The notes under the pieces: model-generated | What the model was told of the DNA's origin: nothing | What the model saw: the letters and a program-made list of their open reading frames with translations, nothing else | The model's database searches: none | Translations under genes and position numbers: made by a program | Assembly: GCA_964607415.1 (NCBI GenBank) | Contig: CAZSKK010000002.1 | Span: 9,991-73,990 of the forward strand | Reading direction: 5' to 3' | DNA: 64,000 nucleotides | Origin: an uncultured Candidatus Saccharibacteria bacterium | GTDB taxonomy: Bacteria > Patescibacteriota > Dojkabacteria > J137 | Shown: one piece after another, positions 1 through 3,732 of the stretch | Layout: each line of letters begins with the position of its first letter | How positions within the stretch are numbered: the first letter of the stretch is position 1

Positions 1-803
1 AGGCATCTGTAACTGGAACTGAAAACTTGGTTTTAGCTGCAGTAAAAGCAAATGGTAGAACAGTAATTTACAATGCAGCATGCGAACCTCACACACAGGA
101 TTTATGCAATTTTTTAGTTTCTGTAGGTGCCCAAATTGAAGGGATTGGAACTAACAAACTTGTAATTGATGGTGTTCAAAACCTAAGTGGGGGAGAGTGG
201 ACAGTCATTTCAGATCATATTGATATTGGTGGAATGATTGTTGCAGCAGCAGTTACTAATGGCGAGCTTCTAATTAAAAATGCAATCCCAAACCACATGA
301 CTCAAATTTTAAATTACTTTGCAAAGCTTAATTTAAAAGTAGAAATTCAAGGTGAAAATATTTTTGTTCCATCTGGACAGGAATTATATGCAATTCCTAA
401 CTTTAAAGGAGATATTGATAAGATCAATGACTTGCCTTGGCCAGGCTTTCCAGTAGATTTAATTCCACAAGCTTTAATTCTTGCGCTAAATGCAAAAGGA
501 AACATTCGAGTATATTCTAATCTTTACGAAGTTCAGCTTGTAGAATTGTTTGCAGAGCTATTCAAAATGAGGGCTAGCATGTCCTTAACCAATCCTAATC
601 AGATTATTACTTTTAATAAAAGTACTATATCCGGGACCACCGTAAACGCATCCACAATTTTGCAGTCTACACATGCGCTAATACTTGCAGGATTAAGCGG
701 GAAAGGTACTACAATAATTCACAATGCAGATATTATTTATAGAAGATTTCCCGAGATTATTGAAACATTCCAAAGGTTAGGAGCTAAGATAGAGAAGATC
801 TGA
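1..803 (+). CDS. murA: UDP-N-acetylglucosamine 1-carboxyvinyltransferase MurA, C-terminal ~265 aa; 5' end lies outside the window
   Basis: In-frame translation from nt 3 reads ASVTGTENLVLAAVKA..., matching the MurA GATGTEN region; the rest matches the MurA C-terminal domain (…TFQRLGAKIEKI stop). The ORF-track start at 27 is a TTG inside the gene, not the real start. Confidence 0.85.
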   Translation, partial: ASVTGTENLVLAAVKANGRTVIYNAACEPHTQDLCNFLVSVGAQIEGIGTNKLVIDGVQNLSGGEWTVISDHIDIGGMIVAAAVTNGELLIKNAIPNHMTQILNYFAKLNLKVEIQGENIFVPSGQELYAIPNFKGDIDKINDLPWPGFPVDLIPQALILALNAKGNIRVYSNLYEVQLVELFAELFKMRASMSLTNPNQIITFNKSTISGTTVNASTILQSTHALILAGLSGKGTTIIHNADIIYRRFPEIIETFQRLGAKIEKI

Positions 804-1270
804 AATTCTCTATAAGCAGCCTTAGCTTTTTTATCAAGCTTTTCAATAAGTGCCCTATATTCCGTTTCTTGTGTCCCAGTAAGTTGTCGCGTAACACTAA
901 GATTAAAAAGCTCTGTTTTTCTTTCCATTAAAGTATAGGTTAGAAGCATGTCTAAGCCTCCTTTTATTTTAGCAGTTCCTCTCTGCTCAAGCTGATTGAT
1001 GAATCTCTCAAAAATAGCCTCTCTATGTTCCTCTATATTTAAAGTCCCATATTCAAATATTCTTTTGAAATATACTATATAAGCCTTTGACTCAAATTTT
1101 CTTTCCGATTCACTATTTTTAACTTTTTCTGCTTCATTAACCAAAGTTGAATAAGAATTAATACCGGAAAGCAAGTTAAGAATCACATCTGCTTTCCTAT
1201 ACTTAGATTCAGTATTAAATAAAATATTTTGATTTTCAAATGCCTCAGCCAGATGATCTTTTGTATCCAT
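737..1270 (-). CDS. hypothetical protein (177 aa), downstream gene of a two-gene operon of unknown function; its 3' end overlaps the murA stop region convergently by ~67 nt
   Basis: Long ORF 2 nt downstream of the 209-aa ORF on the same strand; no motif I can recognise. The convergent overlap with murA is unusual. Confidence 0.5.
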   Translation of the reverse strand: MDTKDHLAEAFENQNILFNTESKYRKADVILNLLSGINSYSTLVNEAEKVKNSESERKFESKAYIVYFKRIFEYGTLNIEEHREAIFERFINQLEQRGTAKIKGGLDMLLTYTLMERKTELFNLSVTRQLTGTQETEYRALIEKLDKKAKAAYREFQIFSILAPNLWNVSIISGNLL

Positions 1271-1272
1271 AG

Positions 1273-1902
1273 TTATGATTCTGGGTTAGGTGCATGAGTA
1301 TGGAAATGGCTTCCTCCAACTACATTAACACCTTTTCTATTTAATCGTTTTGCTAGAAATTCTAGCTCTTGTATCTCTAATTTACTTGTACCACCAACTA
1401 CTTTCAACGAAAATAGATAGGAATAGCGCTGTCTCCTAATCCCACCTAGAACTGTTTCAAAATTAAATTCCCTATAGTTCGTTTGCGAAAGTCGTTGTGC
1501 AATAACTGCCTTAGTAATTAAAAAGTATCTTTCAAGGATTTCCTGTCTGTTTGCTTTTGCTGGAATAAAATCTTTATTAAATCTTATGTTACTAACCAGT
1601 GAAGCAACCATAGGGTTTTTTCTACTGCTATTTTGAAAAAAATATACTAAATCATCAAAATTATCGCATTCTCCTAGATTTTTAACAGCTTTATTTAAAT
1701 CAACATCCCTACAATCGTTGTTTACTAAAATTTGATTTATCTGCTCAATATCCTCATCAAGTAGAAGGCTTGACCAAGGTGATTCTAAAAAATCGTTAAG
1801 CCTGTTATTAAAAGATTCTTGTTTTTTTCTTTCAAGCATCAATTGAAACCCTTCTGTATAAACTGGATCTGGTTCGGAATTTGTGTGATTGAGATCACTC
1901 AT
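1273..1902 (-). CDS. hypothetical protein (209 aa), upstream gene of the two-gene operon of unknown function
   Basis: ORF with three weak internal VxGG repeats (TVLGG / VVGGT / VVGGS) and an HFHTH C-terminus; no family recognised. Confidence 0.55.
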   Translation of the reverse strand: MSDLNHTNSEPDPVYTEGFQLMLERKKQESFNNRLNDFLESPWSSLLLDEDIEQINQILVNNDCRDVDLNKAVKNLGECDNFDDLVYFFQNSSRKNPMVASLVSNIRFNKDFIPAKANRQEILERYFLITKAVIAQRLSQTNYREFNFETVLGGIRRQRYSYLFSLKVVGGTSKLEIQELEFLAKRLNRKGVNVVGGSHFHTHAPNPES

Positions 1903-2037
1903 AAAAAATAATTAATAATTGCGAAAGTTTACCAAAGCCTCCTTAATATGGCAACATTATTCCATTCTCTGGCTTCTGACCTCAGGCCTCTGGTTTCTAA
2001 CTTCTGACTTCTTTCCTTCAATTTGTTAAAATTAATC

Positions 2038-3105
2038 ATGGAAAATCTACAAAAACTTATAGATCAACTAAATCCCGAACACGTTAAATTAAACGAACCC
2101 CTTTCAAAACACACGACCTTAAAAATTGGTGGACCTGCAGATATTTTTTTCACGCCAACATCAACCGATGAGCTTGTAAACGCTGTAAAGGCTGCAAAAA
2201 GCCTGGGAGTTCCAGTAACCATGTTGGGCTGGGGTGCAAATGTTTTAATCGCAGATAAAGGCATTAGAGGCCTTGTAATAAGAAATAACTCTAAAAATAT
2301 TGAAGTTCTTGGGCAAACTAGTTCAAACGAATCACAGGAAAATTCTGATGATACAGAAGTAATTGCAAGATGGACTGCAAGTACAGAAGAGCAGGGCGCA
2401 CGCAAAATGTACGATTTTAAAGATTTGAACTATGATGAATCAGATAAACCTATTATTCAAGTAAAAATGGATAGCGGGGTAGATCTGCCTTATGCAATCA
2501 ATTATCTAATAAGTAAAGGCATTACTGGACTTCAATGGTATTCCAAAATTCCTGGAACAATTGGTGGCGGAATTTATAATAATATTCATGGAGGTACACA
2601 TTTTTTTAATGAAATTCTTGAATCAGTAACAATTTTAGATGAAAAGAATAATATTGTAACTTTAAATAAATCTGAATTGGGTCTTGGATATGATCAATCT
2701 CGCTTCCATAATTCAAAAGAGATAATTCTAAATGGCTTATTTAATTTAAGAGCAGGAGATAAAGAAAAAGCCCAATTTGTAAGCATTGAATGGGCAAGAC
2801 GTAAAGGTGCCCTTCAACCTGCAGTATCGTGTGGAAGCGTGTTTCAAACCCTCTCGAATGATGAAGTACAAAAACGAGGATATCCTACAGGAAGTGCAGG
2901 GTATGTGATTGAACACCTATTAAAAATGACCGGATTCCATGTAGGGGACGCCTGGGTTTCAGAAAAGCACCATAATTTCATAGAAAACAAAGGAGCTGCA
3001 ACTGCCTCAGACTATCTTTCAGTAATAAACGAAATTAAAACTCGAGCTAAACAAGAACTGGACTTAGATTTAAAATTAGAAATATTCCTTCTAGGCGACT
3101 TTTAA
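2038..3105 (+). CDS. murB: UDP-N-acetylenolpyruvoylglucosamine reductase MurB
   Basis: HTTLKIGGPADIFF...LGWGANVLIADKGIRGLVI is the FAD-binding MurB N-terminus; ATG at 2038 (MENLQKL) preferred over the TTG at 2023. Contains a ~60-aa acidic insertion. Confidence 0.85.
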   Translation: MENLQKLIDQLNPEHVKLNEPLSKHTTLKIGGPADIFFTPTSTDELVNAVKAAKSLGVPVTMLGWGANVLIADKGIRGLVIRNNSKNIEVLGQTSSNESQENSDDTEVIARWTASTEEQGARKMYDFKDLNYDESDKPIIQVKMDSGVDLPYAINYLISKGITGLQWYSKIPGTIGGGIYNNIHGGTHFFNEILESVTILDEKNNIVTLNKSELGLGYDQSRFHNSKEIILNGLFNLRAGDKEKAQFVSIEWARRKGALQPAVSCGSVFQTLSNDEVQKRGYPTGSAGYVIEHLLKMTGFHVGDAWVSEKHHNFIENKGAATASDYLSVINEIKTRAKQELDLDLKLEIFLLGDF

Positions 3106-3318
3106 AATATCCTATAATATTAAACTAGTGTTTATTACTTTTATCCTGAAGGCAATCAACGGAGTGCTTTATCTTCTTTCTAACGTTTGTTTAGCCCAAA
3201 TCTTCAGTAAATTTTTAGCCTACATTTAAAATATATGATTTTACTCAATTATTAATAGATGTCAACATCGCATTTTAGTGTAGTATATATATCGAGTATT
3301 GATTGAACCCCTAAACTT

Positions 3319-3369
3319 AAAGTAGAGAAGTAAGTATTATTTTCTATACTTGCAGTTTACTTCTACTTT
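3319..3369. other. imperfect hairpin (AAAGTAGAGAAGTAA...TTACTTCTACTTT) inside the 627-bp non-coding murB-mutL gap
   Basis: ~13-15 bp inverted repeat with a ~21 nt loop; no adjacent U-tract. Confidence 0.4.
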
Positions 3370-3732
3370 TAGAATACTTGCTCGCAAAGCGCATCGATAA
3401 GTTTTACGTAACGAAACAAATTTGATCATAGTAAAAATGTAAAGTTAATGTGTTTTTATATTTCCATAATATTTATTGGATATACATCAAGCGAATGTAT
3501 AAACAAATTATCCATAGCTAGCTGCAACCCTTTGCAAGAAGCTTGTTTCAGCTTTTTTGAAAATTCGAAAATTACAAATTGAAAATTAAATTTGGTTCTA
3601 CTTTTGTTATCAAACGCAAAATTTGCAAAATTTTGTAATTTTTATGTTTTGAGACGCAAATATGAACTTTTAGAAACATGTTAAAAATGTTAATCTTTAT
3701 TTTAGTAACATAAATTTCAAAAATCCCTAAAA

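Follow-up and report, generated by a model that had tools for sequence, protein, structure and literature searches.

Replacement-type flexible genomic islands and core-gene-flanked hotspots for accessory or defense genes are a known kind of locus, as are the idiomorph or specificity-type loci exemplified by the staphylococcal agr groups, the pneumococcal pherotype or bacteriocin-immunity loci and the heteroimmune imm regions of phages. Here, we describe a much smaller locus with features of both, located in a stretch of 64,000 nucleotides (nt), called the window throughout, from an uncultured bacterium deposited as Candidatus Saccharibacteria and placed by GTDB in the Dojkabacteria (Patescibacteriota; J137; assembly GCA_964607415.1, contig CAZSKK010000002.1, positions 9,991 to 73,990, forward strand). 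It consists of two genes, A and B, that sit antisense between murA (left) and murB (right). At least three deeply diverged types occur at this locus, and it is very probably a strain-variable, polymorphic accessory cassette rather than a housekeeping unit.

Both genes are found on the minus strand, exactly where a first-pass annotation made from the sequence of the window had put them. Gene A (open reading frame 1 [ORF1], 1273..1902) encodes 209 amino acids (aa) and gene B (ORF2, 737..1270) encodes 177 aa; each has its own ATG start, and they are separated by 2 nt (TAA-CT-ATG). This spacing, together with one conserved promoter, suggests that the pair forms an operon, as had been proposed. The guanine-plus-cytosine (GC) content of the pair is about 32%, versus 35 to 37% for the flanks, and mutL follows downstream of murB in the window. 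The murB start at ATG 2038 (355 aa) is backed by gene callers and by alignment to relatives, whereas the mechanical ORF list begins the gene at TTG 2023 (360 aa). The features of the locus are the following:

1273 to 1902, minus strand: gene A, type-1 allele, predicted to be a soluble all-alpha protein of eight helices; its C-terminal tail (SHFHTHAPNPES), found only in type 1, is predicted to be disordered.
803 to 1270, minus strand: gene B, type-1 allele, conserved core of 156 codons (...AAYREF), predicted to be all-alpha and soluble.
737 to 802, minus strand: read-through extension of gene B, 21 codons plus a stop (QIFSILAPNLWNVSIISGNLL and the stop), antisense to the last codons of murA.
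1919 to 1958, minus strand: conserved 40-nt block AATGTTGCCATATTAAGGAGGCTTTGGTAAACTTTCGCAA, which holds the promoter of the pair and forms the right-hand boundary of the swapped segment.
804 to 1918, no strand: variable (swapped) segment, delimited by sliding-window identity and junction alignments.
27 to 803, plus strand: 3' part of murA, the left conserved flank (Pfam EPSP_synthase, E value of 7e-28).
2038 to 3105, plus strand: murB, the right conserved flank (Pfam MurB_C and FAD_binding_4), with its own promoter-like site at 2004..2032.

All MurB proteins with identities of at least 91% fall within one 90% cluster, and we compared the contigs of this cluster (numbered with the prefix L). 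In all of them, the slot is occupied by a pair of antisense genes, in the order murB, A, B, and murA in L010 to L013, L016, L017, and L020, and the content of the slot varies. The types are as follows:

Type 1: the window and L002 to L008, with L001 as a diverged variant (A 75%, B 84%) and L101/L102 (A 97%, B frameshifted); A of 209 aa, B of 156 or 177 aa.
Type 2: L010 to L013 and L020; A of 214 aa, B of 175 to 176 aa.
Type 2': L017 and L019 (partial contigs); A 75% identical to the type-2 A, B not on the contig.
Type 3: L016; A of 156 aa, B of 209 aa.

The gap between the two genes is 2 nt in type 1, 15 nt in type 2, and 1 nt in type 3. The A proteins of types 1 and 2 (A1 and A2) are 26 to 30% identical (HHalign probability of 97.9%), and B2 and B3 are 29 to 34% identical. 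A3 has no profile-level similarity to A1 or A2, and B1 has none to B2 or B3 and no relatives beyond its own type. Since A3 and B1 are unrecognizable against the other types, it is only the architecture that points to a common ancestry of all of them. Across these same types, protein identity is 98 to 99% for MurA and 91 to 94% for MurB, and nucleotide identity in sliding windows is 85 to 100% in the flanks and 30 to 52% in the cassette. The boundaries are sharp: on the left, all types become alignable again exactly at the stop codon of murA, and on the right, divergence begins about 20 nt before the ATG of gene A. The partner genes switch type jointly (A1-B1, A2-B2, A3-B3). The pair was found only in one genus-level Candidatus Dojkabacteria clade; synteny is kept inside that clade, with swapped content, and we found no housekeeping homologues with conserved synteny beyond it. 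The proposal that this is an orphan, lineage-specific module holds well, as the pair belongs to no known family, is missing in the closest outgroups (which have murA and murB side by side), and is hypervariable among close relatives.

Gene callers predict the pair on at least 19 contigs from many samples, and the gene A product of the window (P0001) is itself present on 19 contigs. Within types, the ratio of nonsynonymous to synonymous substitution rates (dN/dS) was 0.18 to 0.20 for gene A and 0.16 to 0.25 for gene B (0.25 against L001), compared to 0.01 to 0.04 for murA and 0.04 to 0.07 for murB. Judged from these alignments, both genes are under purifying selection, weaker than that on the flanking genes. 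The within-type values of about 0.2, together with frames that stay open in diverged alleles, indicate that A and B are real genes.

The history of the cassette and that of its flanks do not coincide. Between L010 and L016, dS is about 0.1 in the flanks and synonymous sites are saturated in the cassette, from which we conclude that the divergence did not arise in place. The opposite situation is found between L010 and L013, in which the cassette and the 3' end of murA are 99 to 100% identical and dS in murB reaches 0.88, with the switch located at the promoter block. L020 equals L010 except for a patch of 300 to 400 nt inside gene B, with 70 to 79% identity. This incongruence between flank and cassette and the mosaicism of L020 argue for exchange by recombination, and the sequence comparisons indicate that homologous recombination has moved old allelic classes, either entirely or partially; they do not fit rapid divergence in place.

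Upstream of gene A, a promoter scan revealed a sigma-70-like promoter (1954..1926, minus strand) with a -35 element TTGCCA, a 17-nt spacer, and a TG-extended -10 element TAAACT, and a second promoter-like site (2004..2032) facing murB. The former is contained in the AATGTTGCCATATTAAGGAGGCTTTGGTAAACTTTCGCAA block (1919-1958), which ends about 20 nt ahead of the gene A ATG and is common to types 1, 2, 2', and 3, with a single substitution in the junction alignment, found in L013. The near-invariance of the whole 40-nt block goes beyond the -35 and -10 elements. A perfect Shine-Dalgarno (SD)-like AAGGAGG occupies part of the spacer of this promoter, about 45 nt ahead of the gene A ATG, and is the same in every allele; no SD sequence is located near the start codon of gene A or of murB. 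The divergent intergenic region between gene A and murB (1955-2022) contains degenerate repeats rich in purines (AGAAGYCAGA-like, read on the cassette strand) between the two divergent promoters; they are expanded by 24 nt in L013 and may have an operator or other regulatory role. On the plus strand, a hairpin resembling a terminator was called at 1971-1988. At the convergent junction of the pair with murA, the terminator and promoter scan found no terminator.

By its MurB, the window belongs to Candidatus Dojkabacteria (WS6, Patescibacteria). In the nearest species-representative genome (AP024679.1, KatS3mg085; 59% MurB identity), murA and murB run in the same direction with 3 nt between them, and mutL, DUF192, and ClpP come next, just as they do in the window. 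In L014 (66% MurB identity), the murA-murB spacer has 258 nt and no gene was called in it. The adjacency of murA and murB in these outgroups indicates that the pair is an opposite-strand insertion into a once contiguous murA-murB unit. We also examined murA-murB spacing in a MurB-alignment scan of Joint Genome Institute (JGI) metagenomes (L021 to L100), in which murA was directly upstream of murB only in lineages near Dojkabacteria.

In related lineages, the murA-murB junction is a hotspot for accessory genes, as follows from its empty or unrelated content in the outgroups. It is empty in L009 and L014, and in L027 it carries a CutA1 gene (E value of 7e-22). In L022 (2825-4735, equal to L023 5059-6969; 64% MurB identity), it holds a C39-like cysteine peptidase (E value of 2e-12), an HD-like protein, a small ORF of 66 aa, and a 93-aa Nudix-like fragment. 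The sister lineage L015 (1861-3426; 67% MurB identity) has four same-strand genes there. Their products are a Nudix/MutT-like protein of 248 aa, a RelE/YoeB/YafQ-like toxin of 94 aa, and two further proteins of 110 and 58 aa, the shorter of which has 40% identity to the C-terminal part of the longer. The matches of the toxin (TIGR02116, E value of 4.5e-7; YafQ, 1e-5; RelE, 1.5e-3) are below curated cutoffs and mutually consistent. This set looks like a toxin-antitoxin (TA) module with a duplicated antitoxin-like partner. Nudix-like genes recur beside the junction in two unrelated cargo sets (L015 and L022/L023). No relative of A or B is encoded at these other junction loci, and three scans of viral contigs plus tblastn searches gave no copies of the pair on phages, plasmids, or viral contigs. 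Integrase, repeat, and tRNA scars are all missing at the cassette.

The first-pass annotation had also described a convergent overlap of about 22 codons between gene B and the end of murA. The overlap exists (67 nt, 737-803) and turns out to be the by-product of one stop-codon change. In L001, L002, and L101, a TAG stop directly follows ...AAYREF, giving a gene B product of 156 aa, and murA ends in TAA. The window has G instead of A at position 802; murA then stops at TGA, and the TAG on the opposite strand becomes CAG, which adds 21 codons to gene B. Apart from this, both proteins of L002 match those of the window at 100% identity, and the change is therefore a single-nucleotide polymorphism (SNP) within a population. 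In type 2, gene B ends 9 nt short of the murA stop, and in type 3, it ends 20 nt inside murA; these different ends and the SNP show that no conserved design lies behind the overlap. For annotation, the lesson is that a conspicuous convergent overlap with murA was an accident of one stop-codon SNP. Two catalogued proteins, P0002 and P0003, are 156-aa forms of gene B with the TAG stop. L101 and L102, which come from different sequencing runs of two independent samples, have an intact gene A (97% identical) and share a 1-nt deletion in gene B (GGG to GG, at about codon 75) that breaks it into two pieces, of 76 and 49 aa (L101 903-1372; L102 1010-1240), the shorter of which is catalogued as a separate protein, P0006. 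In view of this frameshift and of the stop-loss extension in the lineage of the window, type-1 gene B seems to be less constrained than gene A or on the way to inactivation.

Profile, sequence, and fold searches gave no match to a known family or fold, in agreement with the original impression that neither protein has a recognizable motif or family. Pfam, NCBIfam, PADLOC, and PHROGs gave nothing significant for the proteins of the window or for those of types 2 and 3; the hits were noise (E values: RFC1, 0.057; AbiEii, 0.049; phrog_5778, 0.019; DUF226, 0.004), and AbiEii was the only PADLOC-DB 2.0 defense model to hit ORF2, below any meaningful threshold. A word-indexed search of 5.8 billion clustered proteins retrieved self or near-self matches only. 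An exhaustive phmmer (HMMER) search of 1.84 billion representatives with a concatenated A+B query produced a single genuine distant match, P0007 (214 aa), a type-2 homologue of gene A with 26% identity over residues 33-193 (E value of 3e-7); no distant relative of gene B was found in that search. Another hit, P0008, was spurious, being a repeated eukaryotic reverse-transcriptase fragment. Profile searches with PDB sequences were empty or artifactual: the match to 1viq was to its His tag only, and that to AcrIF23 (E value of 0.92) was noise. A profile scan of the genome contigs with the ORF1 alignment and an Rfam search of the region gave nothing, and the whole window has only 3 tRNAs. In the literature, we found no paper on this locus and nothing relevant on hypervariability in Dojkabacteria or on TA hotspots in Patescibacteria.

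Structure predictions, suggested along with the first annotation, led to no fold match. The AlphaFold2 (AF2) model of gene B is all helices, with a predicted local distance difference test (pLDDT) score of 43, too low to use. That of gene A is an eight-helix bundle (pLDDT of 63.8, predicted template modeling [pTM] score of 0.59) in which residues 188-209, including the His-rich tail, are disordered. Foldseek comparison of the gene A model with PDB and BFVD gave no match with an E value of <0.3 or a template modeling (TM) score of >0.26, the best TM score being about 0.25. Neither protein has hydrophobic segments resembling transmembrane or signal sequences (maximum KD19 of ≤1.26), and predicted isoelectric points (pI) are 6.1 to 7.9 for gene A and 5.0 to 6.8 for gene B.

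The VxGG repeats (VLGG at 151-154 and VVGG at 168-171 and 194-197) and the HFHTH tail in the C-terminal end SHFHTHAPNPES, pointed out earlier in gene A, are present. Nevertheless, they belong to type 1 and do not define the family, being absent from the type-2 homologue. A JAB/MPN metalloprotease suggested by the HxHxH tail was rejected, as the tail is confined to the final 11 residues, is missing in type 2, and is predicted to be disordered, and the protein has no Pfam match and is all-alpha, unlike the alpha/beta MPN fold with its E...HxH...S..D zinc site. The columns that are invariant across types are mostly hydrophobic core plus a few polar residues, which in gene A are E53, N56, N96, N105, R119, and K131. 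Signatures of a HEPN, nucleotidyltransferase, or other nuclease fold, which had been put forward as something to look for, were not detected; no His, Cys, or Asp (acidic) catalytic residues or clusters are conserved across types, and the comparisons of A1 with A2 and of B2 with B3 show not a single invariant His. Because the cross-type invariant residues belong mainly to the hydrophobic core and form no catalytic cluster, we infer that A and B would be binders rather than enzymes.

Two further relations between the genes were considered and set aside. Paralogy of A and B could not be established: a Smith-Waterman z score of 6.3 (W_A versus L016_B) contrasts with a BLASTP E value of 0.12 and an HHalign E value of 0.19, and in a hidden Markov model (HMM)-versus-decoy test the rank was 62 of 18,006. 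We rejected fusion of A and B by programmed frameshifting, since the gap and frame vary by type (2, 15, and 1 nt) and each ORF has its own ATG.

What could such a cassette do? The scenario that we tentatively favor as a whole is a polymorphic accessory cassette acting as a cognate conflict or addiction pair. The cassette sits antisense in the ancestrally contiguous murA-murB operon of one genus-level Candidatus Dojkabacteria clade, and its two co-oriented genes share a conserved promoter. Idiomorph-like types, at least three in number and of ancient divergence, occupy one slot, from just downstream of the promoter block to the murA stop; each is under purifying selection, and they are exchanged, entirely or partially, between lineages via homologous recombination in the conserved flanks. 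A and B may form a cognate binding pair of the toxin-antitoxin, abortive-infection, or self-recognition kind, with multiple specificity types kept by frequency-dependent selection from phages or competitors. If the pair is TA-like, the upstream gene A would be the neutralizer and the downstream gene B a dispensable effector. For this conflict or TA-like mechanism taken separately, possible is as far as we would go. A conflict or addiction pair is the best fit in light of the deep discrete alleles, the fixed promoter, the covarying genes, the hotspot that hosts a TA set elsewhere, and the tolerated loss of the downstream gene. Still, no direct evidence was obtained for the toxin-antitoxin or defense pair that the first-pass annotation had considered. 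The support is circumstantial, coming from the hotspot, the RelE/YoeB-like module in the sister lineage, the swapping of alleles, and the loss of gene B with A kept.

Several observations weigh against this scenario. Neither protein resembles a known toxin, antitoxin, immunity, or defense family in Pfam, NCBIfam, PADLOC, PHROGs, PDB profiles, or Foldseek, and gene A has no recognizable DNA-binding domain; with no link to any known TA or defense family, we do not claim membership in one. Both proteins are larger and less charge-asymmetric (pI of 5.0 to 7.9) than typical type II TA pairs. There are no phage, plasmid, or viral copies and no paralogues in the 64-kb window, unlike most mobile TA or defense modules. 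The structure models are of low to moderate confidence, which makes the fold negatives weak. Finally, most alleles come from short-read metagenome contigs, in which chimeras are possible at conserved blocks of at least 31 nt, and some of the incongruence between flank and cassette could be an assembly artifact. The existence of several types at one locus is independent of possible chimeric assembly.

Among the alternatives, a lineage-specific factor with no role in conflict is somewhat unlikely in our judgment. A and B would then be fast-evolving accessory or regulatory proteins, involved in envelope or growth regulation tied to murA and murB or in the interaction of the episymbiont with its host, and the types would reflect adaptation to host or niche. 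The location in a cell-wall gene cluster, the strongly conserved promoter, the purifying selection within types, the lack of association with mobile elements, and the structural look of the residues conserved across types all fit such a factor, and the antisense layout could couple expression to murA transcription, as no terminator was found at the convergent junction. It is harder to reconcile with the nearest outgroups, which have adjacent murA and murB and no pair, with natural strains in which gene B is frameshifted, and with the replacement of the whole cassette beside near-identical flanks, which is unusual for core regulators; the proteins also have no signal peptide or transmembrane segment for a role at the surface or in host contact.

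It is improbable that the pair is a decaying remnant of old horizontally acquired DNA (cargo of a mobile element or phage) with little or no function, tolerated at a permissive junction. Its orphan status would be expected from such an origin, the junction takes unrelated cargo in other lineages, type-1 gene B has been damaged in two ways (the frameshift in L101/L102 and the stop loss in the lineage of the window), and a dN/dS of 0.2 stands against 0.01 to 0.07 for murA and murB. However, a ratio of about 0.2 over a dS of 0.4 to 0.7 means sustained purifying selection on both genes, at least three types have retained the arrangement of two genes along with a promoter block that hardly varies, and the integrase, repeat, and tRNA scars of such an acquisition are all absent.

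Divergence in place of one ancestral cassette, by extreme positive selection or local hypermutation and with no exchange, is very improbable. A shared origin is plausible in itself, given the homology of A1 with A2 and of B2 with B3 and the architecture common to all types. This process would nonetheless have to account for a saturated cassette next to flanks with a dS of about 0.1 (L010 versus L016) and for identical cassettes in L010 and L013 despite a murB dS of 0.88, with a dN/dS below 1 throughout and with no diversity-generating retroelement or repeat machinery nearby. That the two ORFs are no genes at all but spurious frames, antisense or arisen by chance in a spacer rich in AT, as the lack of database homologues and the low-confidence models might suggest, is scarcely credible, since frames preserved across alleles that are 75 to 84% and 26 to 34% identical fill a whole 1.1-kb insert that is missing in the outgroups and have a conserved promoter, and their dN/dS of 0.16 to 0.25 effectively refutes it.

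One more region of the neighborhood deserves mention. Between the murB stop and the mutL start (3106-3732) there is a noncoding gap of 627 nt with the lowest GC content of the region (26 to 28%). Its first 110 to 170 nt after murB are essentially unalignable between strains, and the remaining approximately 400 nt are about 90% conserved, with no long ORF and no Rfam match. This gap could contain an unannotated noncoding RNA or a regulatory leader of mutL, plus a second small variable patch.

Genomes of the candidate phyla radiation (CPR)/Patescibacteria are tiny and largely unculturable, with many unannotated genes, and offer few footholds for judging orphan genes. In population-genetic terms, unalignable content in a fixed slot with a fixed promoter is a signature of systems for conflict or specificity, one that can be detected without homology. 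If the cognate addiction or defense module proposed here is real, it would be a new protein family and would mean that ultrareduced episymbionts maintain balanced polymorphisms. If it is not, the locus still illustrates, cleanly and on a small scale, how a hotspot drives the replacement of cassettes in the CPR. In its boldest form, A and B would found a new CPR/Dojkabacteria-specific family of cognate two-protein conflict modules, with incompatible idiomorph types under balancing selection and an antisense promoter coupling their activity to murA-murB transcription; this extension is speculative, and we consider it unlikely.

Compared with known two-gene systems, the layout is that of type II TA modules: two small codirectional genes 1 to 15 nt apart with their own promoter, accessory and strain variable. 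As in those modules, the downstream gene has been lost by frameshift with the upstream gene kept, and a RelE/YoeB-like module is located at the same junction in L015. In contrast, the pair has no match to the toxin superfamilies (RelE/ParE, MazF/CcdB, PIN, HEPN, Fic/Doc, GNAT, Zeta, HipA, and others), and its proteins of 156 to 214 aa have near-neutral or acidic pI and are encoded in single copy, off mobile elements, in one clade. Profiles revealed no antitoxin-type DNA-binding domain (ribbon-helix-helix [RHH], helix-turn-helix [HTH], AbrB, Phd), although the weak models leave room for a small helical motif. With pairs of HEPN and minimal nucleotidyltransferase (MNT) and with AbiE, the pair shares the two-gene layout and the helical content only, since it has no Rx4-6H motif, no conserved His, and no nucleotidyltransferase motif of the GSx10DxD type; the sole AbiEii match (E value of 0.049) is noise and has no Foldseek support. 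A polymorphic toxin-immunity cassette of contact-dependent inhibition (CDI), Rhs, or type VI secretion systems (T6SS) would have a large secreted protein that ends in a variable toxin domain, with a cognate immunity gene behind it, whereas no large toxin gene lies upstream here, the flanks are murA and murB, and no transmembrane or signal-like segment is present. The pair also differs from a housekeeping gene of the division and cell wall (dcw)/mur cluster, being absent in AP024679.1 and L014 and replaced in L015, L022/L023, and L027.

The comparison extends to the specificity-type loci. Like the agr, pherotype, and imm loci, the cassette has discrete, deep allelic classes, conserved flanks and promoter, and partners that change together. 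Unlike them, it has no signaling peptides, kinases, repressors, or secretion signals, and gene B has been exchanged partially by itself (L020); the likeness is an analogy. With both idiomorph-like loci and replacement islands, it shares dissimilar alleles in the same slot, sharp boundaries, and incongruent flanks, the last with the caveat of short-read chimeras. The replacement-type islands provide a parallel in several respects: a fixed slot between core genes whose content has little or no relation from one close relative to the next, sharp boundaries, recombination in the flanks, and sister lineages with different cargo, including the RelE/YoeB-like TA set. The slot described here departs from them in being tiny (1.1 kb, two genes), in keeping a constant two-gene architecture and promoter within the clade, in lying antisense inside an essential cell-wall operon, and in having no A or B allele that matches a known defense gene. 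The protein families are new orphans, and the replacement-type cassette at a hotspot flanked by core genes is a known phenomenon.

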